DNA from: an uncultured Eubacteriales bacterium
GTDB lineage: Bacteria > Bacillota_I > Bacilli_A > Acholeplasmatales > Anaeroplasmataceae
DNA: 64,000 nucleotides
Reading direction: 5' to 3'
NCBI GenBank assembly: GCA_963605425.1
Contig: CAVCUQ010000005.1
Location: 3,460 to 67,459, forward strand
In this document: piece after piece, positions 28,997 to 53,564 of the stretch
Numbering within the stretch: position 1 is the stretch's first letter
Layout: every line of letters starts with the position of its first letter
Program-made: the position numbers and the translations under genes
Notes under the pieces: generated by a model
Seen by the model: the letters and a program-made list of their open reading frames with translations, nothing else
What the model was told of the DNA's origin: nothing
Databases searched by the model: none

Positions 28997-29006
28997 ATTA
29001 AAGCAT

Positions 29007-29078: not shown

Positions 29079-29095
29079 AATAATTTAAAACTAAC

Positions 29096-29126
29096 ACTTG
29101 AGATTTAATAGTCTCAAGTTTTTTTA
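29096..29126 (+). terminator. intrinsic terminator after tRNA-Glu
   Basis: 9-bp stem ACTTGAGAT/GTCTCAAGT followed by TTTTTTT. Confidence 0.75.
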
Positions 29127-29195
29127 TTACACAATTTTTTCACACTTTTTATTTATTATATAGTATAATTTAGTTAGATATGGAAGGTGAGTATT

Positions 29196-30785: not shown

Positions 30786-30802
30786 TATAAAGGAGACTTT
30801 TT

Positions 30803-32752: not shown

Positions 32753-32777
32753 GATTTATAAATTAAGTCTCATTTTT
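32750..32777 (+). terminator. intrinsic terminator separating the two island transcription units
   Basis: 9-bp stem TGAGATTTA/TAAGTCTCA followed by TTTTT. Confidence 0.65.
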
Positions 32778-32914
32778 CATTATTTTTTCACAATTAATTG
32801 AGAGTATTTTAATATAATAAAGATAGATTTTTTCTTAAATTTAACTTACAAATATATAAATTTACTTTTATAAATGATATAATAAAATGAATTATTTTAA
32901 AATGAGGTGGTAAA

Positions 32915-35900
32915 ATGAAAAAATTAAAGATATTTAAACCTTTAATCTTATTTATTTCACTATTTACTTTTCTTTTAGTTGCAGGTTCTAAAGCTAACAG
33001 TAATATTCTTAACTTAGATAATGTATCTAATATGAGCAATGATACTAAGAGCGAGGAAAATATTACAATTAATAACAAATATTTAGATGTAACTTTAGGA
33101 AGTACTTTAAAACTTGATTATACTACTAAAGGAAATCTAACTATAGATAACTTTTTTGTTTATAATCCTAGTGTATTAACAGTTAGTAAGGATGGGGTAA
33201 TTACAGGTAGAAGTAAAGGTACATCACTTGTTAGAATAACTTTAAGTAACGAGTCTATTAAAGATATTTATGTTAATGTTACAGATAATCCTACAAGTGT
33301 ATCTTTAACAAGTAATTTATCTGTTTTAGGTGTAGGTGATACTGCAAAAGTTAGACCTACTTTATCTCCACTAGCATCAAATAGAAATGTAACATACTTT
33401 TCAAGCGATACTAGTAAAGCTACGGTAGATGAAGATGGAGTGGTAACTGCAGTATCTACAGGTGAGGTTAAAATTACAGTTAAGACTATCAACGGACTTA
33501 CAGCTGATTATACATTTACTGTAATTGAAAAAGATACTATGCCTTTCACTACAGATACTTATGAAGTTGATAAGGATTATTCCAATAAGATTTTAGCATT
33601 TACTACAAGTGATGATATTAATTACAAACATATTACGCTTTATGCTAAAAGTAGTGCTACAAATTTTGATGAAGCACCAACATATATCGTTGAATTTGAT
33701 AATATTAGTATAGAAAATACTGGTATAGAGAGTACCGGATCATATGTTCCTGTTTCTATATGGACTGAAGGTTATGTTAATTTTATTTTTAGAATAAAAG
33801 GTGATTTAAAACTTATAGGATTTTCATATCCAGGGATAAGTTGTGAAAGTGTTATTAGCAGCACTAATGTTAATGTAAAATTTGAACTTTTAGATACCAC
33901 ATCAACTATAACTATTGGTCTTGCTGAAAAACTTAATGATAAAGATTCTGATGATGATAGCAATGGAAAAGTTTCATATTCTTTAGGTAATTATGTAAAG
34001 GCTGCAAGTAATTATGATATTTCTAGTTTAACAACTGATATTGAAAACTTAAAAAATGCTGGAGACAAGGTATCATTTACTTTAAATAATTATTTTAATG
34101 ATGAAATTAATATTAATTTTGATTATAAGACTTCAACTGCTTTATTATCTTCTACAACTTCACCTATAATAACTTATTCTAAGACATTTATTGATCTTAC
34201 TCAAAATTACGAAGATACTGTAAATGGTGTTGGTTGTATTACTGATAATCTTTCTATATGTACTGGAGAAGCAGATGATAGAAATAAACAAGTAGTAATA
34301 AGGCTATATGGCTCTGGTACTTGTTCAGTTGTACTTCAAGATAAGAGTAATAATTTTGTCTACGATTATTTTTATTTAAGTGTATTTGCCAATGAAAATA
34401 CTGATTATATTGATATTACACATTTTGTGGTTGAACCATATGGACTCAATACCATATTTAGAGGCCTAGAAGAAAGTATACAAGTTGCATGTTTTTCAGA
34501 ATATACCTTAGTCTCAAGCAATGAAAGCATCTTTACTGTAGATGGTAATAATGTTAAAGGTGTAAGTGAAGGAACAGCTTATTTAATTGCCTATATAACA
34601 AATTATCCTGTTAAACAAGATTCTATCGAACTTACTGTTATAGTAAAAGATGAAGGTGTCACAGTAGATGAAAGTTTAATTACTAATATATCTGTTAATG
34701 ATAAAGTTGATTTAACTAATTGTTTAAGTGTTAGCCCAAGTGATGCAAAATATAAAGATTTAAAAGTCGAAGTTGAAGACAATGGTGTATTATCATTAGA
34801 TGAGTCAACTATGACACTTACTGCTTCAAAGAATGGCTCAGCTAAAGTTACTGTTACTACATATGGTGGAAGCACAAAAGACATAACATTCACTGTATCA
34901 GATCATGTATCTGAAATTAAGAGCGATCTAGAAGAAAGCACTATAATTGAAAATGGAACAACTTTTGATTTAAGTACTCATTTAACAGTATTACCTGCAA
35001 ATGCCTTAAATAAATCTTTAAAGTTTGAATCAAGTGATACTGAAATAGCTACTGTAGATGAAAATGGTTTAATTACTACTTTAAGTAAGGGTATATTTAA
35101 TATTACAGTAACCTCTCTTGATAATGAGAGTGTAAAAAAAGTATTAAAGTTTGAAAGTTATATTAAAGTTACTGAAATTGAAATCGCTAATTTAGATAAT
35201 TACGTTATCTACGATAGAATGACTCTTGATTTAGCTCAGTGTATTAAAGTGTTACCTGAAGAAGCTTCAGATAAGAGGGTTACATATACATCAAGTGATG
35301 AAAAGATTCTTACTGTAACAAGTGATGGTAAAGTAACTGGTGTTACAAGTGGTAAGGCTACAATTACAATTACATCAGTAGATGGTGTAACAAAAGAAAT
35401 AGAGTTTGAAAGCTATATTTATGTAGAAAATATTATTGTAGAAAATCTAGATTCTTATGTGATTAAAGATAAAGCTTCTTTTAATTTAGCTGATAAGGTA
35501 AGTGTTTTACCTGCAGACGCCTCAAACAAGACTTTAACATATACTTCAAGCGATGAAAGTATACTTACTGTAACAACTGATGGCGTAGTAACTGGTGTTA
35601 CTAGTGGTAAAGCTAAAATTATAATAAGTTCAGTAGATAAAAAGAGTGCTGAAGTTGAATTTGAAAGTTATATAAGTGTTACTGATATTACAACTGATTT
35701 AGAGTCATTTGTAATAAAAGATAAAGCAAGTATTGATTTGAATGAAAAATTTAAAGTTTCACCTTTAGATTCTACAAATAAAACTCTAAGTTTCTCATCA
35801 AGTGATACAAGTATATTTAAGATATCAGATGATGGTGTATTAACTGGAGTTACAAGCGGTAAAGCTATTATTACAGTTACTGCAAGCGATAACGTTTCAA

Positions 35901-37594
35901 AAACATTTGAATTTGAAAGTTATATTAGCGCTACAAGCATTGATGTTTCTTTAGAAAAGTATACTTATGAATTAGGTGATACCATTGAACTTGCTAAATA
36001 CTTAACGGTTATGCCAAGCGATTCAACTAACAAGACATTAACTTACAGTATAGATAACACTGAAATTGCAAGTGTATCTGAAACAGGTTTAATTACTACA
36101 TTAAAAACAGGTTCATTTAAAGTAACTATTACTCAAGGAGATATTAATAAAGAATTAGAATTTAAGGTTATTGTTAGTGTAACTGGTATTGAAAAAACTA
36201 ATTTAGATAATTTAAATACAGTAATTGAAAAAGGTAATAACTTAAATATTAGTTCATACTTTAATGTTTTACCAAGTAATTCAACAAATAAGAATGTTAC
36301 ATATTCTGTTTCTGATGAGACTGTTTCTAGTGTAACTGAAGCTGGACTTGTAACTGGATTAAGCAAAGGAACATTCACTTTAACTGTTACAACAGTTGAT
36401 GGAGAGTTCAAAACATCATTTGATTTAGAGGTTTATGTAACTGTTACAGATGTCTATGTAGAAGTTCCTGAAAATACTACATTTAAGGTAAATGATACTT
36501 ATCAAATTAAGGCTCATGTATTACCAGAAGATGCGAATGTGCAAACTCTTTCTTACTATATACCTACAACAAAAGCTAGTGTAAACCAAAGCGGTCTTGT
36601 TACATTTAAACAAACTGGATCTGATAATGGAGAAGTTAAAATCACTATTAGAAGTAGAGAAGGTAATATTGAAAAGACTTTAATTTTATATGTTGTAGAA
36701 CCTGTAACTTCAATTAGTATAACAGGTGAAGAATCTAAGGTTTTACCTATTGGCGAAACATATAAGATGACTTACGAAATTTTACCAAGTAATGCATCTA
36801 ATAAAAATGTTAAATTTACATCAAGTAATTCATCTATTGCAAGTGTATCTGAAAATGGTACTGTTACTAGTAAATCAACTGGTACAGCTACTATAACAGT
36901 TACTACTGTTGATGGCTCTAAGACTGCAAGCATTACTATCTATGCCGGACCTCATGTTGATAGCATCTCAATTAATAATACTGATAGTGAGCTTCATGTT
37001 GGTGATAAAGTTCAAATTAAGGTTACTATTAGTCCAAGTGACGCGTCCCTTCAAACATTTACTTATTCAACAAGTAATTCTGAAATTGCAAGCATTACAG
37101 AAGCTGGTGTAGTTACAGCTTTAAAAACAGGACAAGTTAGAATTACAGTTACAACTTTAGATGAAGGAAAATCTGCTAGTGTTACATTCAATATAAAGAA
37201 TGTTCAAGATAAACCGGAAGAATTAAAGGTAACAAGTGTTGAAGTATATAATGATTCAATTGTAATTTTAAATCCTTTAAGCACTGTAGAATATAGACTT
37301 GTTGATAGTAACAATAATGTTATTGTTGATTGGAATAATGCTATCATTAATAATAAGATAACATTTAGTAATTTAAGTGATAATACAACTTATGTGATTG
37401 AATATAGAACTCCAGGGACTCCATATAAGGACGCTTCTGATTCATTAACACTATCTGTTAAGACATTAAAGAATGAATATGTAAAACTTCCTACAGTCGC
37501 TATCGTATTCATTATCATCGGAGGAGTAGCCGTTTTAGGTGCAGGAGCATTCTTCATTATTAAAGGTATAAAGAAGAAAAAGAAAAATATTTAA
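32915..37594 (+). CDS. giant surface protein with ~13 Big_2 (bacterial Ig-like group 2) domains, signal peptide and C-terminal TM anchor
   Basis: N-terminal signal sequence. The unit V(L/S)P-x-(D/N)A(S/T)NK-x-(L/V)-x-(Y/F)-x-SS(D/N)-x-x-IA(S/T)V-x-x-x-G-x-VT-x-x-x-x-G-x-x-x-ITVT(S/T) recurs. The C-terminus is VAIVFIIIGGVAVLGAGAFFII-KGIKKKKKNI. Confidence 0.85.
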   Translation: MKKLKIFKPLILFISLFTFLLVAGSKANSNILNLDNVSNMSNDTKSEENITINNKYLDVTLGSTLKLDYTTKGNLTIDNFFVYNPSVLTVSKDGVITGRSKGTSLVRITLSNESIKDIYVNVTDNPTSVSLTSNLSVLGVGDTAKVRPTLSPLASNRNVTYFSSDTSKATVDEDGVVTAVSTGEVKITVKTINGLTADYTFTVIEKDTMPFTTDTYEVDKDYSNKILAFTTSDDINYKHITLYAKSSATNFDEAPTYIVEFDNISIENTGIESTGSYVPVSIWTEGYVNFIFRIKGDLKLIGFSYPGISCESVISSTNVNVKFELLDTTSTITIGLAEKLNDKDSDDDSNGKVSYSLGNYVKAASNYDISSLTTDIENLKNAGDKVSFTLNNYFNDEININFDYKTSTALLSSTTSPIITYSKTFIDLTQNYEDTVNGVGCITDNLSICTGEADDRNKQVVIRLYGSGTCSVVLQDKSNNFVYDYFYLSVFANENTDYIDITHFVVEPYGLNTIFRGLEESIQVACFSEYTLVSSNESIFTVDGNNVKGVSEGTAYLIAYITNYPVKQDSIELTVIVKDEGVTVDESLITNISVNDKVDLTNCLSVSPSDAKYKDLKVEVEDNGVLSLDESTMTLTASKNGSAKVTVTTYGGSTKDITFTVSDHVSEIKSDLEESTIIENGTTFDLSTHLTVLPANALNKSLKFESSDTEIATVDENGLITTLSKGIFNITVTSLDNESVKKVLKFESYIKVTEIEIANLDNYVIYDRMTLDLAQCIKVLPEEASDKRVTYTSSDEKILTVTSDGKVTGVTSGKATITITSVDGVTKEIEFESYIYVENIIVENLDSYVIKDKASFNLADKVSVLPADASNKTLTYTSSDESILTVTTDGVVTGVTSGKAKIIISSVDKKSAEVEFESYISVTDITTDLESFVIKDKASIDLNEKFKVSPLDSTNKTLSFSSSDTSIFKISDDGVLTGVTSGKAIITVTASDNVSKTFEFESYISATSIDVSLEKYTYELGDTIELAKYLTVMPSDSTNKTLTYSIDNTEIASVSETGLITTLKTGSFKVTITQGDINKELEFKVIVSVTGIEKTNLDNLNTVIEKGNNLNISSYFNVLPSNSTNKNVTYSVSDETVSSVTEAGLVTGLSKGTFTLTVTTVDGEFKTSFDLEVYVTVTDVYVEVPENTTFKVNDTYQIKAHVLPEDANVQTLSYYIPTTKASVNQSGLVTFKQTGSDNGEVKITIRSREGNIEKTLILYVVEPVTSISITGEESKVLPIGETYKMTYEILPSNASNKNVKFTSSNSSIASVSENGTVTSKSTGTATITVTTVDGSKTASITIYAGPHVDSISINNTDSELHVGDKVQIKVTISPSDASLQTFTYSTSNSEIASITEAGVVTALKTGQVRITVTTLDEGKSASVTFNIKNVQDKPEELKVTSVEVYNDSIVILNPLSTVEYRLVDSNNNVIVDWNNAIINNKITFSNLSDNTTYVIEYRTPGTPYKDASDSLTLSVKTLKNEYVKLPTVAIVFIIIGGVAVLGAGAFFIIKGIKKKKKNI
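34900..37180 (+). repeat. tandem domain-encoding repeats, period 252-255 nt
   Basis: The linker motif TTTGAAAG(T/C)TAT recurs at 35150, 35405, 35660 and 35912; neighbouring units are closely similar. Confidence 0.8.
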
Positions 37595-37613
37595 GAAAGG
37601 TAAGGTTTTAAAT

Positions 37614-38138
37614 ATGAAAAAACATAAAATTTTAATATTAATATTTACATTCTTAAGTATTCTTTCTTTATCAGCTTGTAAGATTGAAAAAAATAGTGAT
37701 TTTACTGTTGTAGTACCTGAAAAAGTACTTATGGGTGATAATTCATTAGAAGGTTTTAAGATTGTTAAAGATGATAAGGAAATAGCTCTTGAAAAAGATA
37801 TGCTTACATCTGATTCCCTTCTAGCGTTCTACAAAGAAGGAAAAGAAGAGATTACAGTTACTTACCAAAATATTACTAAAAAAGTTGAGATTAATGTTGT
37901 AAGAAGAATTTTTGATTCATCTGTAAACTTAAGTGATAAAACGTATGAATATACAGGTGAGCCTATTATAGTTACTGTAGATGGTATTTTGCCTGCAGAT
38001 GTAACTATATACTATCCTTTAGGTAATAGTTTTACAAATGTTGGTGAATATAATATCACAGCTATTGTTTCAGCTCCTTATTACACTACATTAACATTTA
38101 ACGCGACTGTAAAAATTGTTGAAAGTGAGGCGGAATAA
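37614..38138 (+). CDS. lipoprotein (174 aa), T4SS-operon associated
   Basis: Signal peptide with lipobox LSLSAC; 19 nt after the preceding gene; TAATG overlap with the next gene. Confidence 0.7.
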   Translation: MKKHKILILIFTFLSILSLSACKIEKNSDFTVVVPEKVLMGDNSLEGFKIVKDDKEIALEKDMLTSDSLLAFYKEGKEEITVTYQNITKKVEINVVRRIFDSSVNLSDKTYEYTGEPIIVTVDGILPADVTIYYPLGNSFTNVGEYNITAIVSAPYYTTLTFNATVKIVESEAE

Positions 38139-40591
38139 TGAAAAAAGTTAAATTTATCGGCCTTGTTCAAGCTATTATATTAATTATTACCGCTATTAGT
38201 GTTACTTTATTCTTAAACTTTAATCTGATGCTTAATGGATCTAATTGGATTAAGTGGTTTATATTCTGGTGGGTACTTGCTTCATTACTATCTAATGTAT
38301 TATTATCAAATAAATTTGCATCAGGTGTAGCTCAGGAGTGGGTATTCTATATATCAATTGGTGTTTTAATATCATCAATTATAGCTTATATTCTATTCTC
38401 ATTTATATTCTCTAATTTTAATTATAACAATATGGACTGGGTTGGATCTTTACAAGCTATTATTGTTGTTGATTTTAGATACTACGGAATCTTACTTGGT
38501 GTATTTATCGGATTTAGTGCTCTTTATTTCTCATTCTTTGATAGACAAATGCTTAAAGGCTTCAAAGGCGGATCAGGACTTGGTGGTAAGGGTAAATTAA
38601 ACAGAGTAGATGCTAACCTTGAAAATTCTCGTTGGATGACTAATGAAGAACGTTTAAAGATTTTTAAGAACTATAAATATGAAGAATTAAAAACTGTTAA
38701 AAAAGATGGTGTTCCTGTTATGGCAAAGATGGACGCTAAAGAAAAAGGTATGCAAGTAGCTTTCTCATCTCCATCTCATGGTCTAATTATCGGTTCTACA
38801 GGTTCAGGTAAAACTACAACATTCGTAAACCCAATGATTCAACTTTTAGCTACAACTGAAGCTGGTTCATCAATGATTATGACTGACCCTAAGGGTGAAC
38901 TATTCTCTCTTCATTCTAAATATTTAGTTGAAAGAGGATATGATGTTAAGGTTATTGATTTAAGAGATACTTATCAATCTTATAGATGGAACCCTCTAGA
39001 TTCTATTTATGATATGTATGAAGAATATCGTAATGTTTATAAACAAGCATTTGAAAGAACTGATTCCTTTGAAAGTTCTGGTCTTGAAAAGGCTAATCCT
39101 AAAGATGATTTTACAAATGTAACTAAATGGTACGAATTCCAAAATAAAGCATATGTATCTTATGAATCATTAGTTCTTGGTATGAAGATTTATAAGAAAC
39201 AATTATTTGATGAAGTTTATGAAAATCTAAATGACTTAACAAGCGTACTTATTCCTATTGAGAATGAAAAAGACCCAATGTGGGAAAAAGGTGCTCGTGC
39301 TATAACTCTTGCCGTATTACTTGCGATGCTAGAAGATAGTGAAATTGAAGAAATGCATATGACAAAAGACAAGTTTACATTCTTCAACTTAACTAAGATT
39401 TTACAAAACTCTAATAAAGATTATCTAGAACTTAGAAAATATTTCCAAGGTAGAAGTCCATTAAGTAAAGCTTTATCACTATCTAAACAAGTGTGTGACG
39501 CAGCTGAATCTACAAGAGCTTCATATATGTCAGTTGTTTATGAAAAGTTAACTTTATTTAATGACTCAGGTATTTGTGGTCTTACAAGTTCATCAGATTT
39601 TACTCCTAAGAGTTTAACTGAAAAACCAACAGCTTTATTCTTAAAGATTCCTGATGAAAAGACTACTCGTCATAATCTAGCTGCTATCTTTATTCTAGAT
39701 TTATATAAATCACTAATTAAAGTAGCTTCAGCTAATGAAGATTTATCATTACCTAGAAATGTATACTTCATTCTAGACGAATTCGGTAACATGCCTAAGA
39801 TTGAAAACTTTGACAAGATGATTACCGTAGGTCGTTCACGTAAGATTTGGTTCAATATGATTGTTCAATCTTATCAACAATTAAACAATGTTTATGGTGA
39901 TAAGGCTGCAGATATCATTAAAGGTAACTGTGGTATTAAGATGTTTATCGGTTCTAACGACATCGGTACTTGTAAAGAATTCTCAGAACTTTGTGGTAAT
40001 ATCACAGTTGTAACAAAGTCAACTTCATCATCAGATAGAAATGACGGAACTTCTACAAGTAATCAAACTCAAGTAAGACCTTTGATTTATCCTAGTGAAC
40101 TTCAAAGATTAAATAAACAAGGTGATATCGGTAATGCAATTATCGTAACCTTTGGTAACTACCCTTTAAAAACATTCTTTACACCAAGTTTTAAGGTACC
40201 TTTCTATAAGATGGGTACAATGGATACATCAGAATTAAACATGAATTATTTTGATGAACAAGCTGCTTTCTACGACATATCAAAGAGAAATGCTAAAATA
40301 TTTGAAGAAGCAGAAAAGAGAAATGTTGTAAAGAGAGGAAGACCTACAAAGGCTGAAAGCGAAGCTCGTAAAGCAGAGGCTCTAAAGAATGGTACTCCTA
40401 TTAAGAAGCCTAAGCCAAAGAAAGAAAAGAAGCCTAGCGACTTAACTGAAGTAGATAAAATAATGCTTAATAGAAATATTGATTTCTTTGTAAACCAATT
40501 AAAGCTTTATAAAGATGTTTCGAATATTTCTGATACTGAATTAATGAAATTAATTAAAGAAAAAATGAAAGAAGGTGATGATAATGAATAG
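38138..40591 (+). CDS. type IV coupling protein (VirD4/TraG family) with 4 N-terminal TM helices and a basic C-terminal tail
   Basis: Walker A GSTGSGKTT, then MTDPKGELF, YRWNPLD, Walker B YFILDEFGNMP and GRSRKIWFNMIVQSYQQL. Confidence 0.85.
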   Translation: MKKVKFIGLVQAIILIITAISVTLFLNFNLMLNGSNWIKWFIFWWVLASLLSNVLLSNKFASGVAQEWVFYISIGVLISSIIAYILFSFIFSNFNYNNMDWVGSLQAIIVVDFRYYGILLGVFIGFSALYFSFFDRQMLKGFKGGSGLGGKGKLNRVDANLENSRWMTNEERLKIFKNYKYEELKTVKKDGVPVMAKMDAKEKGMQVAFSSPSHGLIIGSTGSGKTTTFVNPMIQLLATTEAGSSMIMTDPKGELFSLHSKYLVERGYDVKVIDLRDTYQSYRWNPLDSIYDMYEEYRNVYKQAFERTDSFESSGLEKANPKDDFTNVTKWYEFQNKAYVSYESLVLGMKIYKKQLFDEVYENLNDLTSVLIPIENEKDPMWEKGARAITLAVLLAMLEDSEIEEMHMTKDKFTFFNLTKILQNSNKDYLELRKYFQGRSPLSKALSLSKQVCDAAESTRASYMSVVYEKLTLFNDSGICGLTSSSDFTPKSLTEKPTALFLKIPDEKTTRHNLAAIFILDLYKSLIKVASANEDLSLPRNVYFILDEFGNMPKIENFDKMITVGRSRKIWFNMIVQSYQQLNNVYGDKAADIIKGNCGIKMFIGSNDIGTCKEFSELCGNITVVTKSTSSSDRNDGTSTSNQTQVRPLIYPSELQRLNKQGDIGNAIIVTFGNYPLKTFFTPSFKVPFYKMGTMDTSELNMNYFDEQAAFYDISKRNAKIFEEAEKRNVVKRGRPTKAESEARKAEALKNGTPIKKPKPKKEKKPSDLTEVDKIMLNRNIDFFVNQLKLYKDVSNISDTELMKLIKEKMKEGDDNE

Positions 40592-46500: not shown

Positions 46501-48152
46501 ATAACACAAGAATATTTAACGTAACAATATCAGATGATAGCTTTAACGTTACAAATGATATTTTCAAAGGATTAAGCAAAGATGCGCTTAAGGAATTATA
46601 TTCTAAAGATTTAGTTTCTATTGATAAGTCTTTATTTGATACATATCAAATATATAGAGTAGAAATGGCTTATAAAGATGATGATTACTTAGTATATTAT
46701 GATAATATCTCTCAAGAAAAGATTACTAATATTTCTCTTACAGATTTAGTTGGTTCTCTTGGAGATGGTGTATATAAGATTCGCTTTAGAAATATATGTG
46801 GTACTGAATGCTTAAAAGAAATTCATTATTCAGGAACATCTACTTTAAATGTAGAAAGAATGACTAGAAGTGATTTTGAATATAGTGCTTTAGATATTAA
46901 TAAAATAGATGAAGGTGCTTATTCAAATAACTTAGTTCGCTTTAAGTCAACAGCTAAAACATATGATTTTAAGATCGATGGTAATAAGGTTGATTGTCCT
47001 TATGAATTATCATTCCCTAAGACTACTGCAAGTGGTACTTATACTTATTCAGCTTCTTATGTTGATGAATATGGATTTAAGTATGAATTTACTGTTTACT
47101 TAATTAGACAAAATGTAAATTATACATTATCTAAGGAACCTACTTCAATTAATGGAGTAAATACTGTAAATAGTAATTTCTATATTACATTTGATAGTGA
47201 TTCTTATTCAGGTGATTATATCTTAGATAATTCAGCTATTTATACTTATAATAATAAAGACTTATTAACTAAAGATGGTACTTATTCATTTAATATAAGC
47301 GATAAAGCTGGTAATGTTACATCATTTACTATTAAGAAGGATACAATTGTAGAGTTTACTGCATATGAATCCCAAACAAATAACACTGTGTATAATGGTT
47401 CTGTTTCAAATAACGGAAATGTTGTTATAAGCGGTGCTCAAGGTGAATATGTAAAAGTTGTGAAAGCATGGCTTAATTCGGTTGAAAGAGATGTTTCATC
47501 AAGCTATAATGATAATGGAAAGTGGGAACTATTAATTGAGGACTTAGTAGGTAATCAAACTTACTTTATGTTCTATATTTATACTCACACTATCTCAAGA
47601 TTAGCTTACTCTACACCTTACAATTATAAGTTTAAGACTATTCTTTACACAGATTTATCTGGTAATGCATCTAACTATATTGATAAGGTTATAGATAACA
47701 CATATTATGATTCAATAACATTTGAAGAAAATGGTGAATATTATGTTGAAATGTTATCTAGTGCAACTAATCAAATTATCACATTTGAAATTAGTATTTC
47801 TAATTTAACTCCTGATGTTAAACTTGTTGGTGTTGAAAACGATGGTTCTACGAACAAAGACGTTACACTAACTGGTTATAAATTAGGTGATATCATTAGA
47901 ATTTATAAAGACGGTACATTAACAAACACTATAACTGTTATTTCAGCAACTCAAGCTAGCCCTGTCATCAGTGAAAAGGGTGAGTACACTGTTGAAATTA
48001 CTAATGAGGAAGGTAATGTAACTACACTACATTTTAGAAGACAATATACTGCGAATGCAGCTAGCTCAACTGTTATAGTTGTTGTGCTTTCAGTTATTGC
48101 CGTTGTATTATTTATTGGTCTATTCTCTAGAAAAAGAGAAAAGATAGATTAG
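40575..48152 (+). CDS. giant (about 2520 aa) surface protein with signal peptide, many Ig-like beta-sandwich modules and a C-terminal TM anchor
   Basis: Signal sequence ...KKAIVLAEG. At least 10 modules end in D-x-x-G-N-x-(S/T)-x-(F/Y)-x-(F/V). The C-terminus is STVIVVVLSVIAVVLFIGLF-SRKREKID. The start is probably the ATG at 40578 or 40584, overlapping the T4CP stop. Confidence 0.8.
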   Translation: MMIMNRVYRNVMRIFTILSIFILSFTTLKKAIVLAEGTGEPTKVEFLDNRENQITDSTVTIKSDSTKAYFYVKIYAESGKFNVYLETSDGTLLSSQNEYTEISSSSIYATGEVDTDKGYALVSITVEVAKKVKDYVQVEDCPNYFYVSLVKINNTSYNRTLTVNCESTYIYETKQNEVDKGYVLKLYESITSQTLINDSKRVDNGRNSVTKLDINLSSSYNAKSQALIANKFANYYVSTEGKQAWDNSFKYTLGLVEYNMYSANIANPIYTTAYITNTWSGWDSVKPGRNAAYGDSSDNWKLDNNILTKNIFEKSNGTQNWHDHTFVTKDGSGSIYYFAESSLGNTYYQIDNSTLNNPYLTITNYSGAYNYANYIATCGNYEYTDTDWKGISYKASIDTNRKLDMKSWSAKSFIADTTAPTVSGAYLVNSNKKKNFAKGDKVQIAVRFSEPVQVLDTKNLKIQLTTNSYNANINPVRFDYKSGSGTYTLIFEAESSSYSSKEVNITSISSIDFINANGGRADSLIRDYSSSLYTGLNSKNKNSQNNAYLKNGYYSGYSYSTSIEYNVDTRSPKVTITPNTKILSKEKDISIQFGNVGTNATFYYKLIKEADLAGYTDEDYEKDLSELDTTSDHIISDGNKTGKYYFYYKIVTYYGVEVSNKDDLTNTNKKEDYALLYDNSAPVLTDENGNVKDIFYHQNSKDDNNNIKNDSYDFTVYLKDLEESYVGGSGNFCRIKNISFIYSENDFSYNSNIGSINLYSDSSTSYAKIKCDSTNKYKYTFTISYDMISDTLVDKSRLYSTLYVGIEVEDTSGNIYTYTNQNFAKATLKFDSRTKLAGIFSYPDEENKIYGLDVYKKGSSVSFTADSSVDVTGGTFTALVYKISYLSDSKKTQRELVSDDSNVYTFSSSDKTATIKFNQSGYYEYQFVLNDKVYSEANEIYIGSSIDNNETSDKTYNTTNSEVVINNVWSTNSLMYYYYNDSRVITERYNGVVNPQMFSSKSYLQQYIKYYEYQDLSYVITTSQIATSLNGSASSTYQKATGETRTASTNEIWIRYKKASWNYSNSTTEWVYYYYGEYNGSNDYINVLNLSQNLKNAINSVVSTIVSKCSNVNLVTEEYLNNGVPTLAKNQVHPDKEEAKTSKSGITLQNVNFVGDAGIYSSYKTIKDNNFYYFSNYKFVYTPYTKFYYANVVEGNNFVFTKDDLQSLDVTGDKTLNHILESGTYVLIEVDENGISKTFMYIVNYKDAPGLNISYSSKTTTDEELTLSYANNGERFNATSFAIKSLGDSVDDYAYVRVSTRNSVTTYYSTDFKDGEIEKDPVLLKDGTYTIFVSDRFGNSYSFTVSVNSSDIKYTFNTYDSEYVRFTCELEEDDVFSFSISLNGEVITNQYQKSIKLTKSGTYILALNDIYGNSVNETVVLERKNPEVSWWYVSGNSYEKFDETSTTGAIIDKISTSSYEIYTSSRVQFQYTGDYSYQFSDGVNYTQSSYWGSQRVTITSEEYFTVKIYYTDYEEAQVTYTVIFDKEAADIKASVNTNEYTYKDLEKISIGDYKIDDIGFDIKSTDSFGILNNGQIFSKNINLNVTDDSGIKALTITLNGNALTLSEEIQTKILNKDKSISLILTEIGKYQITAVDRLGNESTFAFENVEPNYFGLHLDDNKVTLNTNPEEALEKSSYGHASIVYSFNEIEQIVYLIDGTYFTIIVRDNALYVQYLGNDEHENYGLIEKTLINDITTSSEYTELDVVSIDGIKLSYRKLDGSFYFMITALNSNVHNVVSRTISDYSYVPFYNKVELCGKLSSLDFVNSDNKAVNVNALNGYTNLEFTIRKSTLDSDITKIEYAENSTNNFDNITLKELDLTSEFTYYGTDDGYFKFKATNKYGMVTSYIIRVFRQLLIEVDAKYSDNTKISYIHDGSSSYFSNNKVVIRSFDSDSKFTIEKESEEVKFDVTRTDDYAEVTISGNGVYLVTIVDNANNTRIFNVTISDDSFNVTNDIFKGLSKDALKELYSKDLVSIDKSLFDTYQIYRVEMAYKDDDYLVYYDNISQEKITNISLTDLVGSLGDGVYKIRFRNICGTECLKEIHYSGTSTLNVERMTRSDFEYSALDINKIDEGAYSNNLVRFKSTAKTYDFKIDGNKVDCPYELSFPKTTASGTYTYSASYVDEYGFKYEFTVYLIRQNVNYTLSKEPTSINGVNTVNSNFYITFDSDSYSGDYILDNSAIYTYNNKDLLTKDGTYSFNISDKAGNVTSFTIKKDTIVEFTAYESQTNNTVYNGSVSNNGNVVISGAQGEYVKVVKAWLNSVERDVSSSYNDNGKWELLIEDLVGNQTYFMFYIYTHTISRLAYSTPYNYKFKTILYTDLSGNASNYIDKVIDNTYYDSITFEENGEYYVEMLSSATNQIITFEISISNLTPDVKLVGVENDGSTNKDVTLTGYKLGDIIRIYKDGTLTNTITVISATQASPVISEKGEYTVEITNEEGNVTTLHFRRQYTANAASSTVIVVVLSVIAVVLFIGLFSRKREKID

Positions 48153-48176
48153 ATATGGTGAGGGAGGAATTTAAAA

Positions 48177-48485
48177 ATGTTAAACACTATATTAGCTACA
48201 TCAATCAGTCAAAATGATTTAGACAGAGTCGTTGAACCAATTTTATCATTCTGTAAGGTATTAATTCCAACTATGCTTACAGTTGTTGGTACTGTTGGTG
48301 CAATTTGGGTAATCTTACTATGCGTTAAGTTCTCAAGAGCAGATGATCCACAAGAACATGATAAAGCTAAAAAGGCTTTAAAAAATGCAATTGTTGGTTT
48401 CGTATTAATTTTCATTCTATTAATCATGTTAAATGTTGGTGTTGAAGTTTTCACAGCTTGGTGGAAATCTTACCAAACAGCTTAG
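48177..48485 (+). CDS. small two-TM membrane protein, VirB2/TrbC pilin-like topology
   Basis: 102 aa: a leader-like N-terminus, then two hydrophobic helices separated by the charged loop KFSRADDPQEHDKAKKALKN; GGGAGG RBS. Confidence 0.5.
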   Translation: MLNTILATSISQNDLDRVVEPILSFCKVLIPTMLTVVGTVGAIWVILLCVKFSRADDPQEHDKAKKALKNAIVGFVLIFILLIMLNVGVEVFTAWWKSYQTA

Positions 48486-48493
48486 GATTATAA

Positions 48494-49150
48494 ATGTTTA
48501 AAAATTATATAAGAATAGTATTAGGCCTTGCCTTAAGTCTTTTCTTATTTTGCTTATGTTCTTGCTTCGATCTTGGTTCATATAATGAAGGTTATACAAC
48601 TCAAGACGGAACTAAACAGTGGAAAACTGATTACTACGACTATTTTCCAAATGTAATTATTTATAAAGATTTTAAAGCAACTTCATATAATATGAATTTA
48701 TTCTATAACGAGGCTTCTTATAGTTCTAATCCTATCAGTGAAAATTGTCCGATAGAAGAAGATGCTTACGAAGCTATCGTTATACCAGTTGCAAAAGATC
48801 TAGTTATTGGTGAATTTAGATTCTTTATTGAATCTAGCAAAAGTTGTGTATTAAACACTAGTTTCTATGTTTCTGACAGTGATATTACTATCTCATCTCA
48901 GGGTGATGATAGTAGTACTACTTCAGAAAACACTAAAAAACAATATATTGTTAATGGAAATCCTAGTAAATACACCATTACTTCTAGCAATAAATTTTCA
49001 GATACTAATGTTAAATTTTTATCTCAAGCAGATAAAACTGTAACTAAGGGTAAATATTTGATTTTCTTATTTGAAAATAATATTAGCGAGAACGATGAAA
49101 AATGTAATTTTAGATTTACTAATGTTCTAATTAGTAATGTATCTAAGTAA
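48494..49150 (+). CDS. lipoprotein (218 aa), T4SS-operon associated
   Basis: Signal peptide with lipobox-like LFCLCSC. No other motif. Confidence 0.65.
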   Translation: MFKNYIRIVLGLALSLFLFCLCSCFDLGSYNEGYTTQDGTKQWKTDYYDYFPNVIIYKDFKATSYNMNLFYNEASYSSNPISENCPIEEDAYEAIVIPVAKDLVIGEFRFFIESSKSCVLNTSFYVSDSDITISSQGDDSSTTSENTKKQYIVNGNPSKYTITSSNKFSDTNVKFLSQADKTVTKGKYLIFLFENNISENDEKCNFRFTNVLISNVSK

Positions 49151-49162
49151 AGGAGTGATAAT

Positions 49163-50548
49163 ATGTTCGATTGGTTTTGGAACTTCTTATATTCTATTTC
49201 AAAGAATATCTATAGAATTATAGATGGTCTGATGAATGTTGCAAACATGATGTGCGGTATTGATCCTATCACTATAAATCAAGAAGAAACTGATTTAATT
49301 TCATATTTATTCAATTCAAATAACGTGCAGTTTGCATTTAAAGCAACAGCTATAATTGGTTTTATTCTTGTAATATTACTATCGGTTATTGCAATTATTA
49401 GAACTGCAGTTAAAGAGAAGGTTGAAGATACTCCTGGTCAAATTTGTATCAAAGCATTTAAGGCAATTATTACTTTTATGTTTGTACCATTTTTGATGAT
49501 TGTTATTGTAAATTTATGTAATGTATTCATGATTGCCTTATATAAAGCCACTCTTGCAGGAAATACAACATTAGGTGACTTTATGTTTGTATCATTTGCC
49601 CAAGATTCTGATTATGAGGCCGCAAACAATCTAGTTAAAGCATTCCCTAATACACAAGTATGGCTTAATACTGATACTGTAAGATCATATATAGATATAA
49701 CTGAGTACAATTATTTCTTTTCATGGCTTGCAGGTGTTGCAATTTTAGTTAATATTGCATGGAGCTTATTACTATTTGTAGATAGAGCTATTTCCCTTGT
49801 TATTCTTTATATCTTATCTCCTTTATCTATAGCTTCAACAGTTGTAGATGGTGGGGCTAGATTTAAGATGTGGAGAGACCAAACTTTGACTAAGTTTGCA
49901 GTAGGTTATGGTACTATTATTGGACTTAATGTTTATTTACTTGTAATTAATGCGATTATCGGAGTTACATTCTTTGAAAATCAATGGCTTAATATGCTTG
50001 TAAAGATCCTATTTATTGTTGGCGGAGCTCTTTCAATGAAGAAGGCTATGGCTCTAGTTGGAAACCTTGTAACTCAAGGTGGTGGTTCTCAAGAATTAAG
50101 AGAGCAAGCTATGGGACGTGGTGCTTTAATGAAGAGTTTAGGTGGATTTGGTTCTGGAGTTTTATCTGCCGGATTTGGCGGAATGAAGGCTGCCTTACAC
50201 CCAGCAGCTACAGCTAGAAATGTAGGTAGTGCTATTGCAAATAAATTCGGATTTGGCTCTTCAGGTGGTCAAAGCGAAGGAAACAAACAACTTGAGGCTC
50301 AAAATAAAACTAATGAATTATTATCTAGCCTATTAAATGGTAACCATAATAATGCATCAGGTATTGGCGGAGGTTCAAACGCTGTTAAGAATGCTATCCA
50401 AAATAGCTCATCTAATGGCGGAGGAAGCGCTAATAATAACATTGTTAATTCAAACAATGATTTAAATGAAAAGACAAGCCAAGCTATAACTAATTCAAAA
50501 CTTGATTCTAATGATAAAGCAAATCAATCAAACCAAAATAAGAAGTAA
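49163..50548 (+). CDS. polytopic membrane protein, VirB6/TrbL-like, with a G/S/N-rich disordered C-terminal tail
   Basis: 5-6 TM helices, then ~160 aa of low complexity (GGGSQ...GFGSSGGQ...SSNGGGSANNN). Its position between the pilin-like gene and VirB4 matches T4SS synteny. Confidence 0.55.
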   Translation: MFDWFWNFLYSISKNIYRIIDGLMNVANMMCGIDPITINQEETDLISYLFNSNNVQFAFKATAIIGFILVILLSVIAIIRTAVKEKVEDTPGQICIKAFKAIITFMFVPFLMIVIVNLCNVFMIALYKATLAGNTTLGDFMFVSFAQDSDYEAANNLVKAFPNTQVWLNTDTVRSYIDITEYNYFFSWLAGVAILVNIAWSLLLFVDRAISLVILYILSPLSIASTVVDGGARFKMWRDQTLTKFAVGYGTIIGLNVYLLVINAIIGVTFFENQWLNMLVKILFIVGGALSMKKAMALVGNLVTQGGGSQELREQAMGRGALMKSLGGFGSGVLSAGFGGMKAALHPAATARNVGSAIANKFGFGSSGGQSEGNKQLEAQNKTNELLSSLLNGNHNNASGIGGGSNAVKNAIQNSSSNGGGSANNNIVNSNNDLNEKTSQAITNSKLDSNDKANQSNQNKK

Positions 50549-50559
50549 GGAGATAAAAT

Positions 50560-53202
50560 ATGAGAATTATACCAAAAACTGCCAAAGTTAAAATTCAATT
50601 CTTTAGAAATATCTCTATAGTAGATGTTTTAATCGGCATATTTGCCTTACTTCTAATGGTTTTATTATTCCTTACAAATATAGGAATTGCTAAATATTTC
50701 ATAATGGTCGGAATCTTTGCAATAGCTGTATGCTTATTCTTACCATTTGATGGACAAAGATTCTACATGGTATTTGCAAACTATGCTAAATATCTATTCA
50801 CTATTAAGAAATATAATCTGCAAATTAAAGACGCATCTAGTAATGTCTTAAATATCTTACCTTATCGTGATATTAAAGATGGTTATATTGTTTATGAATC
50901 ATATTTTGCAGGAGTAATTGAAATTGACCCACGTGAATTTAGATTACTTTCCGGTTATAAACAAGATGAAATTATTGAACAATATTTTGGTAAGATTATT
51001 AGATCTGTATCAGGTAAGAGTAAAGCATCCCTTGTTAAGATTGATAGACAATTACGTCTTAATAAATATATTAAGCAAGAAGAAGATAAAATTGATAAAC
51101 TAAAAATTTTATTTGACGCTGGCGAAATGAATGAAAAAGAATTATTTGAAAGAACTAGAATCATTCAAGATAGAATTGAAATTTATAAGAATCTAGATGA
51201 AAATCAAGTAATTAAAAAACCTTACTATTATTTTGTAATATATGATAGTGAAAAGAATGTTATTGATGAAGTCTTAAATGAAGCTGTTTCAACATTTTTA
51301 GATGCTGGAATGACTTCTCATAGATTATCAAATAAAGAACTTGCAGTATTCTTAAAGCATAACTATCAAGAAGACTTCAATGAAGATGATGTAGACTTAC
51401 TTTCAGAAGATGAACTATTAAATTGGGTTATTCCTCATGATGTAAGTTTTACAACTAATAATACTTATGTAGATGGAGTTAAAACTTATAACTTTACAGT
51501 AAAAGGTTATCCTCTATATGTATTAAATGCTTGGGGATATAAAATGTTCAACTTAGATCATACTAAGGTTGTAATGAACATTGAACCATATGAGAAGAAT
51601 AAAGCGGTTAAGATGATAGATAGATCTATTCAAGAACTTGTATCTCAAAGTGAACAATCATATCGTGCTTCATCTTTAATTAGTAAACAAACTCACATTG
51701 ATACACTTGTAGATTTAATGCGTAGACTTCAAAATGATAATGAAACTTTATTTAAGGTAACTATTCATATTTGTTTATATGAACAACCTAATACTAATGG
51801 TAAAGCCTTAAAGAAGAATTTAAAGAGTAGCCTTTCAGAAGATGGATTTGAACTTGTTGAAAATTATGCTAGACAAAATAAAGCATTCGTTTCATCTAAT
51901 CTATCCAAATATGATGCATTTGAAGAGTATTCAAGATCTATTCATTCAACAAGTGTAGCAGCTGTATTCCCATTCGTCTTATCAACTGTAATGGATGATA
52001 AGGGAGATATAATCGGTGTAAATAAGGGTTACCCTGTAATTATTGATTTCTTTGCTAGAAATAGTGAACGTGTTAACTCAAATATGGTTATTATTGGTAA
52101 ATCAGGTTCAGGTAAATCTTATGCAACAAAGACTATTTTGTCACAACTTGCTAGTGAGAACTCTAAAATATTTATTCTAGACCCTGAAGATGAATACAAA
52201 TATTTATCTGATTCACTAGGTGGTAAAACAATTGATGTTGGTACAGCTACAAGTGGTAGATTAAATCCATTCCATATCATTACAACTCTAGAAGCTGATG
52301 AAGGAAATGGAGCTGTAAACAACTTTGGTATTCACCTTCAATTCCTAGAAGAATTCTTTAAGGTAATCCTTGAAGGAATCTCTAGTGAACCTCTTGAATA
52401 TTTAAATAATTTAATTATTGAATTATATCATTCTAAAAATATTGATTCACACACAGACCTTTCAACTTTAAATGCCGAAGATTATCCTATCTTTGATGAT
52501 TTATATGATTTAGTAGAAGAAAGACTTGAAGAAGCTGATAGTGAATATGATATTAAGAATTTAAGAATCATCTTAAATTATGTTGCAAAATTCTCAAAAG
52601 AAGGAAGAAATGCACTTCTTTGGAATGGTCCATCTAGTCTTTCTGTAGATGAAAACTTTGCGGTATTCAACTTTAGAAGTTTACTTGCAAATAAGAATGG
52701 TACTATTGCAAATGCGCAAATGTTACTTATCTTAAAGTGGCTTGATAATGAAATTATTAAGAATAGAGACTTTAATTTAAAATATAAGACCGATAGAAAA
52801 ATTATTGTTGTAATTGATGAGGCCCATGTCTTCATTGATGAAAAATATCCTATTGCCTTAGACTTTATGTATAATCTTGCAAAACGTATCAGAAAATATA
52901 ATGGTATGCAAATTGTTATCACTCAAAATATTAAAGATTTCGTTGGTAGCCAAGAACTTGCAAGAAAATCTACAGCCATTATTAATGCTTGTCAATATTC
53001 ATTTATTTTCTCACTAGCTCCAAATGATATGGATGACTTATGTACTCTATATGATAAAGCTGGTAAGATTAATGAAATTGAACAAGATCAAATTATTAAT
53101 AACCCTCGTGGTCACGCCTTTATTATTACGGGACCTAGTTCAAGAAATAATATTGAGATAGTAGCTAGCGAGCGTGTTAGAAAATTATTCGAAGAAAAAT
53201 AA
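50560..53202 (+). CDS. VirB4-family T4SS ATPase with an N-terminal VirB3-like two-TM module
   Basis: Walker A GKSGSGKSY, then FILDPEDEY, GRLNPFHI, Walker B IVVIDEAHVF and RKYNGMQIVITQNIKDF. The N-terminal hydrophobic hairpin spans aa 20-62. Confidence 0.85.
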   Translation: MRIIPKTAKVKIQFFRNISIVDVLIGIFALLLMVLLFLTNIGIAKYFIMVGIFAIAVCLFLPFDGQRFYMVFANYAKYLFTIKKYNLQIKDASSNVLNILPYRDIKDGYIVYESYFAGVIEIDPREFRLLSGYKQDEIIEQYFGKIIRSVSGKSKASLVKIDRQLRLNKYIKQEEDKIDKLKILFDAGEMNEKELFERTRIIQDRIEIYKNLDENQVIKKPYYYFVIYDSEKNVIDEVLNEAVSTFLDAGMTSHRLSNKELAVFLKHNYQEDFNEDDVDLLSEDELLNWVIPHDVSFTTNNTYVDGVKTYNFTVKGYPLYVLNAWGYKMFNLDHTKVVMNIEPYEKNKAVKMIDRSIQELVSQSEQSYRASSLISKQTHIDTLVDLMRRLQNDNETLFKVTIHICLYEQPNTNGKALKKNLKSSLSEDGFELVENYARQNKAFVSSNLSKYDAFEEYSRSIHSTSVAAVFPFVLSTVMDDKGDIIGVNKGYPVIIDFFARNSERVNSNMVIIGKSGSGKSYATKTILSQLASENSKIFILDPEDEYKYLSDSLGGKTIDVGTATSGRLNPFHIITTLEADEGNGAVNNFGIHLQFLEEFFKVILEGISSEPLEYLNNLIIELYHSKNIDSHTDLSTLNAEDYPIFDDLYDLVEERLEEADSEYDIKNLRIILNYVAKFSKEGRNALLWNGPSSLSVDENFAVFNFRSLLANKNGTIANAQMLLILKWLDNEIIKNRDFNLKYKTDRKIIVVIDEAHVFIDEKYPIALDFMYNLAKRIRKYNGMQIVITQNIKDFVGSQELARKSTAIINACQYSFIFSLAPNDMDDLCTLYDKAGKINEIEQDQIINNPRGHAFIITGPSSRNNIEIVASERVRKLFEEK

Positions 53203-53278: not shown

Positions 53279-53500
53279 ATGAATAAAAGATTAGTATTAA
53301 TTCCAGTAAGTTTGCTTGGCATTATGCTTACCTATAAAATGCCACATATAGATCAGATAGAATATAAGAGTGAAAACAACCTTGAAGAGGTAAGTGCTTC
53401 TTGGGATAACAGTATTCAACTTAATTATTTAGAGAATTATAATAAAGCAAGCCAAATTGAAAGCACAAATTTATTAATTGAAAATAAGGAGAACGACTAA
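53279..53500 (+). CDS. small secreted or membrane-anchored protein (73 aa)
   Basis: TATAAT at 53248-53253, AAGGTGA RBS, N-terminal hydrophobic segment LVLIPVSLLGIMLTY, terminator immediately after. Confidence 0.45.
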   Translation: MNKRLVLIPVSLLGIMLTYKMPHIDQIEYKSENNLEEVSASWDNSIQLNYLENYNKASQIESTNLLIENKEND

Positions 53501-53518
53501 ACGTTCTCTTTGTTTTTA
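53489..53518 (+). terminator. intrinsic terminator at the end of the island
   Basis: GAGAACG/CGTTCTC stem followed by TTTGTTTTT. Confidence 0.6.
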
Positions 53519-53564
53519 ATTTGTGATTATTTTTTATTATAGTTATAAAGATTTATTTAAATTT

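Follow-up and report, generated by a model that had tools for sequence, protein, structure and literature searches.

The stretch analysed here is a 64-kb window of contig CAVCUQ010000005.1 from an uncultured Eubacteriales bacterium (about 28% guanine plus cytosine (GC), read cleanly with translation table 11; all coordinates are window positions). Its plus strand carries, at 32915-53202, eight tightly packed and co-directional open reading frames (ORFs) for a type IV secretion system (T4SS) that has no linked relaxase. The system is real and conserved, extends the known relaxase-free, pilin-bearing T4SSs of monoderm bacteria beyond Patescibacteria, and ties this type to the pore of the integrative and conjugative elements (ICEs) of mycoplasmas. 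It is read here, with a probability of roughly 0.45, as a domesticated, chromosomally fixed, minimal monoderm T4SS whose type IV coupling protein (T4CP) would feed a protein cargo into the conduit. Protein delivery is slightly favoured over relaxase-independent exchange of DNA.

The operon and its predicted machinery

The genes of the operon and its boundaries are as follows, with the evidence for each in brackets (aa, amino acids; TM, transmembrane; AF2, AlphaFold2; L numbers denote related loci, L085 being the closest relative).

32744..32914, + strand: upstream boundary, with a terminator-like hairpin (32744-32778) ending the preceding unit, a promoter-like region and a ribosome-binding site (RBS)
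32915..37594, + strand: 1559-aa Big_2 surface protein, first gene of the operon (Pfam Big_2, 8.8e-107, 11 stretches; TM scan; synteny)
37614..38138, + strand: lip174, 174-aa surface lipoprotein, first gene of the conserved core (lipobox LSAC; homologues in L085-L090)
38138..40591, + strand: 817-aa T4CP, VirD4/TraG-like (Pfam, NCBIfam, TM scan)
40575..48152, + strand: 2525-aa giant surface fibre (synteny, AF2, Foldseek, family lengths)
48177..48485, + strand: 102-aa VirB2-like pilin, a two-TM hairpin (Pfam, NCBIfam, TM scan)
48494..49150, + strand: lip218, 218-aa lipoprotein (alignment, AF2, Foldseek)
49163..50548, + strand: 461-aa polytopic VirB6-like channel protein (NCBIfam, TM scan)
50560..53202, + strand: 880-aa VirB4 ATPase (Pfam P-loop_TraG, NCBIfam VirB4_plasma, PDB 4AG5)
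53279..53521, + strand: 73-aa ORF with a hydrophobic N-terminus (53279-53500) and a terminator-like hairpin (53476-53521)

All eight ORFs of the operon are intact. The intergenic gaps are 19, 24, 8, 12 and 11 nucleotides (nt), and the remaining junctions overlap. The stop codon of lip174 and the start codon of the T4CP gene overlap in TAATG (38136-38140), and the giant ORF has three possible starts (GTG at 40575, ATG at 40578 and ATG at 40584), all before the T4CP stop codon (40589-40591), which gives an overlap of 8-17 nt depending on the start codon. ORFs, spacing and both overlaps are as described in the initial annotation, which had also put the two giant surface proteins at about 60% of the operon length; the computed share is (4680+7578)/20288 = 60%. 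The operon is taken to start at 32915 because the hairpin at 32744-32778 precedes it, as does a region with an extended -10-like sequence (TGaTATAAT, about 32874-32883) followed by the RBS GAGGTG and the ATG at 32915. Downstream, the operon may end with the 73-aa ORF as a ninth gene; L081 and L082 have a 75-aa ORF at the equivalent place, which is set beside it by position only. A second hairpin lies 3' of the operon at 53571-53598.

Four proteins make up the membrane machine. The T4CP matches Pfam T4SS-DNA_transf (4.8e-56), TraG-D_C (1.9e-34) and also TrwB_AAD_bind, and scores 304 bits against the NCBIfam family conju_CD1115, above its cutoff of 250; it has about four to five N-terminal TM segments and a variable, charged C-terminal tail. 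VirB4 matches Pfam P-loop_TraG (1.5e-21) and the VirB4 domain of PDB 4AG5 (7e-50), and is aligned over its full length with the NCBIfam model VirB4_plasma (NF045975, CDS17/TraE-type, Mbov_0397 family) at 578.5 bits (1.9e-173), just short of the curated cutoff of 590. A hydrophobic membrane segment at its N-terminus corresponds to a fused VirB3-like region. The same protein scores 152 bits on the CD1110 model (cutoff 325) and matches the CedD model at E=3e-6. The VirB6-like protein, with at least five TM segments by hydropathy, exceeds the cutoffs of two NCBIfam models (NF045848, MMCAP2_0566, 133 bits against 90; NF045889, Mbov_0396, 116 bits against 70). The pilin matches Pfam T4SS_pilin (PF18895, 1.3e-9) and the NCBIfam Mbov_0395 pilin-like family (44.9 bits, cutoff 40), and is 92% identical to its counterpart in L085. 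The VirD4-type coupling protein, the VirB4 ATPase, the polytopic VirB6/TrbL-like protein and the pilin-like hairpin of 102 aa, all proposed in the initial annotation, are validated by these hidden Markov model (HMM), structure-database and topology results.

The T4CP tail (residues ~726-760, window 40300-40591) contains an AT-hook-like sequence, VVKRGRPTKA, followed by a Lys/Pro-rich stretch. The motif KRGRPTK was rejected as evidence of DNA binding because it occurs in only four of 120 homologues, the four closest, and is not a feature of the family; most other T4CP homologues end in a conserved small helical motif (W..FK..NPxGTLxEFY).

The remaining four are surface proteins. The 2525-aa protein has a signal peptide, a long chain of immunoglobulin (Ig)-like beta-sandwiches and a C-terminal TM anchor, although it has no Pfam, NCBIfam or PDB sequence match. 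An AF2 model of residues 1826-2525, built from a 42-sequence alignment (mean predicted local distance difference test score, pLDDT, 89.3), consists of about eight Ig-like beta-sandwich domains and then a TM helix, and Foldseek matched it to multi-Ig fibres, namely the grappling-hook protein GhpA, DSCAM and S-layer proteins. Among 1.84 billion representatives, a search with the C-terminal 1,200 aa retrieved 241, of which 120 had E<=1e-30. The homologues are mostly collinear and 2,400-2,700 aa long, and this tight clustering suggests a length constraint; as judged from its members, the family is small, specific to this T4SS and conserved in length. A few outliers (P0289, P0292, P0295 and P0296) are longer, at 3,500-5,400 aa, and it is their C-terminal part that is homologous. 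The gene, coding for ~2,400-2,700 aa, invariably has the T4CP gene on one side and the pilin gene on the other. The protein is best read as a membrane-anchored contact fibre, and an Ig fibre of about 2,500 aa is a hallmark and obligatory component of this type of T4SS. The 1559-aa product of the first gene likewise has a signal peptide and a C-terminal TM anchor, between which are 11 Big_2 Ig-like domains.

As the initial annotation had it, there are two lipoproteins, each with a signal peptide and a lipobox Cys. A homologue of lip174 is found directly upstream of the T4CP gene every time, extended to 510-984 aa in other lineages; lip174 itself has no family match, and its 536-aa homologue in L089 has a weak match to the Ig-like MBG_3. 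A VirB8/TcpC-like NTF2 fold, which had been envisaged for the lipoproteins, was looked for in lip218. Its AF2 model (six-sequence alignment, pLDDT 74) is an all-beta structure with a beta-sandwich, and the best Foldseek matches, CBM11/CBM35, are weak (E>=3.7e-3); according to this model, lip218 is probably neither an NTF2 protein nor a hydrolase.

A conserved core resident in the chromosome

In a species-level scan with one genome per species, at least 506 genomes encode a relative of VirB4; the best 80 loci were fetched, and their architectures were derived by tblastn with all window proteins. The architecture with the giant fibre is found in 35 of these 80 loci (VirB4 identity 55-90%), in the order lipoprotein, T4CP, giant (2,400-2,600 aa), pilin, lipoprotein, VirB6-like protein and VirB4, which corresponds here to 37614-53202. 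The eight-gene unit of the initial annotation is therefore right for the ORFs present in this window, while the evolutionarily conserved core is one of seven genes: the Big_2 gene is a lineage-specific accessory found only in L085 and absent in L086-L090. VirB4 homologues with 64-90% identity occur in many gut metagenome assemblies, the alignment covering residues 1-880 in dozens of genomes, and an identical VirB4 is found in 22 assemblies with the same context.

Pfam-annotated contexts at ten places show one core in differing housekeeping neighbourhoods, with no mobility gene in any of them. The neighbours are clpB/znuA in the closest relatives, and elsewhere ABC/MatE transporters, arginine biosynthesis genes with rpsP and a two-component system, fatty-acid synthesis genes, or two-component systems. 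In four of seven distinct contexts a two-component system lies directly upstream of the core (L086 6995-9182, L087 2652-4266, L090 5018-7671, L089 6319-8014), and L086, L087 and L090 share an orthologous LytS-type kinase (PF06580) with a response regulator of about 260 aa (38-43% identity). This two-component system was rejected as a component of the machine because the window has no counterpart. Genes for SpoIIE-type phosphatases were also seen near the system in L061 and L087.

A rearranged variant (VirB4 identity 46-52%, T4CP 51-62%) occurs in metagenome-assembled genomes (MAGs) labelled Lachnospiraceae or Oscillospiraceae and in Lachnospiraceae bacterium 45-P1, whose genome is not a MAG. 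In L061, the locus of strain 45-P1, the order is Rce1-like CAAX protease, T4CP, x, VirB6-like protein, x, VirB4, SBP_bac_3-like protein, x, pilin and further unassigned genes, where x is a gene without identification. In the variant loci (L039-L080, for example L061 1298-21989) several uncharacterised proteins of 500-900 aa replace the single giant fibre. Among nine such loci, an Rce1-like CAAX/CPBP protease is encoded by eight ORFs and an SBP_bac_3-like protein by seven, the latter right after virB4 in L061.

The carriers come from human, ruminant, poultry, rabbit and apparently termite gut samples. Their labels include Coproplasma (Christensenellales, Clostridia) and Enteromonas (RFN20, Bacilli), the closest being labelled 'Anaeroplasmataceae', and many of these MAG labels are unreliable. 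An assignment of the present organism to RF39 was dropped in view of these relatives. One carrier is assigned to RFN20/CAG-826, a family predicted to be peptidoglycan-deficient, and others to Clostridia lineages not described as wall-less. Many of the lineages are uncultured, and some have been described as having reduced genomes. In the literature covered, no T4SS of this kind was found described in gut Firmicutes, and none was linked to RF39, the only lineage name searched. One MAG, CAMVBZ01, carries two diverged copies of the whole operon (L026 on contig 1 and L034 on contig 5; VirB4 segments 55-73% identical, GC 0.33 in both), which are either an old duplication or the result of a mixed bin.

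The composition and divergence of the genes indicate how long they have been in place. Over 67 loci, the GC content of virB4 follows that of the downstream DNA (r=0.965, range 0.26-0.59, mean difference 1.6 points). Compared with the closest relatives, the T4SS genes have a synonymous divergence (dS) of 0.7-1.2, except for the 102-codon pilin gene (0.37), and the flanking clpB, znuA and GDSL genes one of 0.84-0.99; all these values are approximate because dS is near saturation. The ratio of non-synonymous to synonymous divergence (dN/dS) is 0.086 for VirB4, 0.105 for the T4CP and 0.14 for the pilin, compared with 0.066 for clpB, and 0.29-0.44 for the giant, both lipoproteins and two proteins encoded upstream of the operon, h349 and h649 (lip174 0.44, lip218 0.32); lip218 evolves fast. 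Identical in VirB4 protein sequence, L081 and L082 are distinguished by a nucleotidyltransferase/HepT toxin-antitoxin pair (L081 12812-13622) inserted just downstream of virB4, with the T4SS gene order unchanged.

The GC tracking, the dS equal to that of the flanks, the low dN/dS of the ATPases and the stable T4SS order beside the toxin-antitoxin insertion speak against a recent island as well as against a remnant in decay, and point to a system that has long been resident and under selection, neither an ICE nor a remnant. The suggestion in the initial annotation of a domesticated or minimal T4SS gains support from these comparative data. That the operon is what remains of a conjugative element without current function would agree with the absence of mobility genes in all searches. 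However, its eight ORFs are intact, VirB4 aligns from residue 1 to 880 in dozens of genomes, the ATPases have a dN/dS of 0.09-0.1, close to clpB, and the gene order is held across genomes of 26-59% GC, so that this explanation is effectively refuted. It is also improbable that the system serves only for adhesion or pilus biogenesis, with a VirB2-type pilus and giant fibres attaching to mucosa or cells and nothing being translocated. Such a role would fit the conservation of a VirB2-like pilin beside VirB6 and VirB4, the Ig-domain fibres that take up 60% of the operon, and the lipoprotein folds resembling binding modules; yet known systems build pili without a T4CP, whereas here the T4CP is invariable, overlapped at its start and under strong purifying selection.

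Mobility genes and the surrounding window

Between recO and clpB, searches of the ORFs with Pfam, NCBIfam and PHROGs detected no family of relaxases, recombinases, transposases or peptidoglycan hydrolases, in accord with the initial annotation, which had noted no relaxase, recombinase or hydrolase there. Most of the remaining window ORFs of 100 aa or more were also scanned with Pfam/NCBIfam, and those scanned had no match to any of the same four classes. None of the operon proteins, including both giants, has a Pfam/NCBIfam domain of a VirB1-like hydrolase (SLT, CHAP, lysozyme or M23). A bitopic VirB8-like protein with an NTF2 fold was not found either, the lip218 model being all-beta and lip174 lacking a family match of its own. 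A relaxase, recombinase or hydrolase hidden in the ORFs upstream of the operon, the lipoproteins or the giants was rejected as a candidate after negative searches with Pfam, NCBIfam, PHROGs and PDB sequences.

The related loci give the same picture. Precomputed Pfam annotation placed no relaxase or recombinase family in the flanks of eight related contexts, none was among the 25 listed of 32 Pfam families matched by 100 ORFs of nine variant loci, and no transposase family corresponding to the DDE (Mutator-like) recombinase CDS22 was found in the window or related loci. No recombinase or integrase with flanking att repeats was detected, no long direct repeats bound the block, and its flanks differ between genera. 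In the many genomes where it recurs, the block has different housekeeping neighbours and is never bounded by repeats or a recombinase; it is a bounding by repeats with a recombinase that the initial annotation had regarded as speaking against its proposal. A plasmid origin was also rejected: no VirB4 of a PLSDB plasmid reaches 60% identity, the best being those of Spiroplasma plasmids at 27-31%.

The region between recO and the operon contains the following features.

26569..32752, + strand: four orphan genes, h424, h349, h532 and h649, for proteins of 424, 349, 532 and 649 aa
29006-29079: tRNA-Glu(CTC) gene in the middle of the orphan block, 3.8 kb upstream of the operon, having a terminator-like hairpin of its own (29096-29119)

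The orphan block has a GC content of 0.24 compared with 0.28-0.29. Its products h424, h349 and h649 are without a signal peptide or TM segment, and h532 has Asn-rich 'NIDN/NINN' repeats and one central TM segment. No Pfam, NCBIfam or PHROG match was obtained for these genes, and PDB sequence searches with h424, h649 and the giant were empty. The four genes occur only in the closest relative and lie outside the conserved system; their products are 40-53% identical to those of that relative, where the T4CP is 91% identical. In L087 (286 and 504 aa) and L090 (315, 603 and 462 aa), too, similar orphan proteins lacking an export signal are encoded ahead of the operon, which makes three lineages in all. 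The sole element shared among these cytoplasmic proteins across lineages is a 41-residue motif (SxSFFxKxMHPI) in h349 and the 286-aa protein of L087. The orphan proteins might be accessory proteins or substrates of the system.

The tRNA-Glu(CTC) gene, absent from the initial annotation, is a potential integration site, but was rejected as such: its 3' end is not directly repeated, the block is not bounded by any long repeat, and near 53.2-53.6 kb nothing like an att repeat of the gene was detected. A still-mobile ICE or island near this tRNA gene, with its relaxase and recombinase unrecognisable and located in the orphan ORFs or at a distance, could account for the tRNA gene 3.8 kb upstream of the operon and for four orphan ORFs of GC 0.24 between recO and the operon; Mycoplasma ICEs are likewise without a recognisable relaxase (PMC6030558), and VirB4 identities that are alike from class to class hint that horizontal transfer took place in the past. 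On the other hand, the 3' end of the tRNA gene is not repeated, other genera keep the full seven-gene core without the orphan ORFs, and these ORFs evolve far faster than the ATPases. In addition, no sampled flank contains a recombinase or transposase family, GC is fully ameliorated with dS equal to the flanks, and it is the toxin-antitoxin insertion that varies between two assemblies with the same VirB4 while the T4SS order is constant. A mobile element of this sort is very improbable.

Other ORFs of the window are for queuosine synthesis, a MATE transporter, a P-type ATPase, an ABC transporter, GlpK, Abi_2, an M32 peptidase, a patatin-like protein, RecO, ClpB, ZnuA, a GDSL lipase, tRNA methyltransferases and RNase J. 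The Abi_2 (abortive-infection-like) gene (17649-18545, - strand) is a lone minus-strand gene amid housekeeping genes, and the queuosine precursor genes form a compact operon (1731-4534: PTPS/QueD, a radical-SAM QueE-like protein, GTP cyclohydrolase I, QueC and QueF).

Known relatives, cargo and significance

The system probably belongs to the same lineage as the mating pore of Mollicutes ICEs. The Mycoplasma ICEs (ICEA of M. agalactiae and ICEB of M. bovis) and modules of Spiroplasma plasmids have homologous pilin-like (Mbov_0395), polytopic (Mbov_0396/MMCAP2_0566) and VirB4 (Mbov_0397 model, full-length) proteins in the same relative gene order, a T4CP, and surface lipoproteins in the apparatus. 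These homologies, with VirB4 at 578.5 bits against the cutoff of 590, bear out the view of the initial annotation that Mollicutes ICEs are the closest parallel. As in the Mycoplasma ICEs, no recognisable relaxase, VirB1 or VirB8 is present (PMC6030558, PMC12857230). Unlike them, however, the system has neither the DDE recombinase CDS22 nor flanking repeats, and no match to the CDSG partitioning (ParA-like) family; CDS1/A/C/19/30 were not compared directly. Apart from the pilin-like, polytopic and VirB4 families, no NCBIfam ICE family was matched by the operon or upstream ORFs, though not every gene of the ICE backbone has a model. Its lipoproteins have no detectable homology to CDS14, the T4CP is of the clostridial CD1115 family, the ~2,500-aa Ig fibre is obligatory, and there is one copy per sampled contig at a fixed place within a lineage, with one MAG having two diverged loci. 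VirB4 is only 27-31% identical to its Spiroplasma counterparts, and falls slightly short of the NCBIfam cutoff (578.5 vs 590).

The nearest published analogue is the T4SS of Patescibacteria. In Southlakia epibionticum (SEML1_0006-0019) and widely in its lineage, a chromosomal monoderm T4SS descended from the FATA type of mating-pair formation (MPF) system is found without a relaxase, its VirB2-like pilins (PF18895) adjoin virB4/virB6, and co-option for a non-conjugative role has been proposed (PMC12102498, PMC10633639, PMC12857230). The idea has more precedent than the initial annotation supposed: in Patescibacteria, a monoderm T4SS that is chromosomal, lacks a relaxase and has VirB2-like pilins is already on record (PMC12102498, PMC10633639). 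Patescibacteria need their T4SS for epibiotic growth. The T4SS cluster of Southlakia (Saccharibacteria) has no recognisable coupling protein, and an unlinked t4cp homologue was not essential for that growth (PMC10633639, PMC12102498). The present system is likewise chromosomal, has no linked relaxase, and has a PF18895 pilin adjoining virB4/virB6. In contrast, its T4CP gene is always in the operon and highly conserved, while that of Patescibacteria is mostly unlinked; a single pilin gene replaces an array, no peptidase or lysozyme gene is adjacent, and the hosts are Firmicutes, not members of the candidate phyla radiation.

The MPF-FATA conjugation systems of Firmicutes (pCF10, pIP501, ICEBs1, Tn916 and C. 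difficile CTn CD1110/CD1115) have a similar core of VirB4, T4CP and VirB6-like protein with no outer-membrane components, and the T4CP here passes the cutoff of the CD1115 family. The large surface adhesin in the operon is analogous to PrgB. Unlike in these systems, no relaxase, oriT, integrase, VirB1-type hydrolase or VirB8-like protein is seen here, and VirB4 reaches 152 bits on CD1110 (cutoff 325). The VirB2-like pilin present here is missing from the MPF-FATA systems of Firmicutes (PMC12857230).

A functional analogy only exists with the killing T4SS of Xanthomonadales, the type-IVC system of Streptococcus suis 89K and the archaeal Ced system. In these chromosomal, relaxase-less T4SSs, protein or DNA passes from cell to cell by means of VirB4, either alone or together with a T4CP (partly PMC12857230). 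No sequence relationship exists with them beyond the ATPase superfamily (CedD, E=3e-6), and neither XVIPCD-type effectors nor immunity genes nor Ced components could be recognised here.

In the favoured reading of a fixed, minimal T4SS for protein delivery, the fast-evolving fibre and the lipoproteins, together with the extra Big_2 fibre in this lineage, would recognise and hold a partner cell, VirB4 would power the assembly of a conduit from the VirB6-like protein and the pilin, and the T4CP would recruit a cytoplasmic substrate and feed it through this conduit into the contacted cell. The substrate would be a protein, either an effector or another cargo, rather than the element's own DNA. 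This is the weakest step; a protein is proposed because no DNA-processing gene is present in the core or the sampled neighbourhoods, and because orphan proteins without an export signal lie beside the operon in three lineages.

Several points weigh against this reading. No effector was found, and the orphan proteins beside the operon lack conservation from one lineage to another and might just as well be regulators or unrelated genes. All relatives of these protein families that have been characterised by experiment, namely the Mycoplasma ICEs and the CD1115-type T4CPs named for conjugal transfer by NCBIfam, move DNA (PMC6030558). A relaxase might be encoded elsewhere, the searches having covered the 64-kb window and 22-kb loci. 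VirB4 identity is similar across classes, 61% in Enteromonas (RFN20) and 66% in Coproplasma (Christensenellales), in so far as the MAG labels can be relied on, and an ancient horizontal spread of the system is likely from these values.

The same domesticated machine might instead carry DNA, in a species-wide chromosomal exchange independent of a relaxase or dependent on a trans-acting nickase. The fast-evolving surface proteins would then be determinants of mate recognition, and the chromosomal transfer of mycoplasmas through the ICE pore and the archaeal Ced system would be the cases to compare. The families of the Mollicutes-ICE pore, through which both ICE and chromosomal DNA pass (PMC6030558, PMC12857230), include or lie close to the pilin, the VirB6-like protein and VirB4, and the closest plasmid relatives are Spiroplasma plasmids with the same module. 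The T4CP, a member of the CD1115 family named for conjugal transfer by NCBIfam, is retained, tightly coupled and as conserved as VirB4, whereas that of Southlakia is non-essential (PMC10633639, PMC12102498). The system also looks core to the species, with identical VirB4 in 22 assemblies of the same context. On the other side, no gene for a relaxase, nickase, SSB, primase, ParA or other DNA-processing protein is found in the core, in 17 neighbourhoods or in the window, and relaxase-less T4SSs are conventionally taken as protein translocators. DNA as the cargo is accordingly possible but doubtful. A broader proposal, rather unlikely as a whole, is that the seven-gene core is an ancient, vertically kept cell-to-cell bridge of gut Firmicutes, which would exchange chromosomal DNA (or cytoplasmic macromolecules) independently of a relaxase, with the diverging fibre and lipoproteins for partner recognition, and which would be a non-mobile sister or ancestor of the Mycoplasma ICE pore and of the pilin-bearing T4SS of Patescibacteria.

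If the favoured reading of a fixed T4SS for protein delivery is true, relaxase-free fixed T4SSs with VirB2-like pilins would not be peculiar to Patescibacteria, but would be widespread in gut Firmicutes (at least 506 species-level genomes), and the review statement that Gram-positive T4SSs are without pilins, with Patescibacteria as the sole exception, would need widening. The Mycoplasma ICE pore would gain many non-mobile relatives, which would offer a concrete route for the capture or domestication of the pore. The cultured Lachnospiraceae bacterium 45-P1, with the variant form, would make the role of a relaxase-less monoderm T4SS experimentally testable. Whether DNA or protein, the cargo bears on how abundant gut organisms interact with their neighbours or their host.

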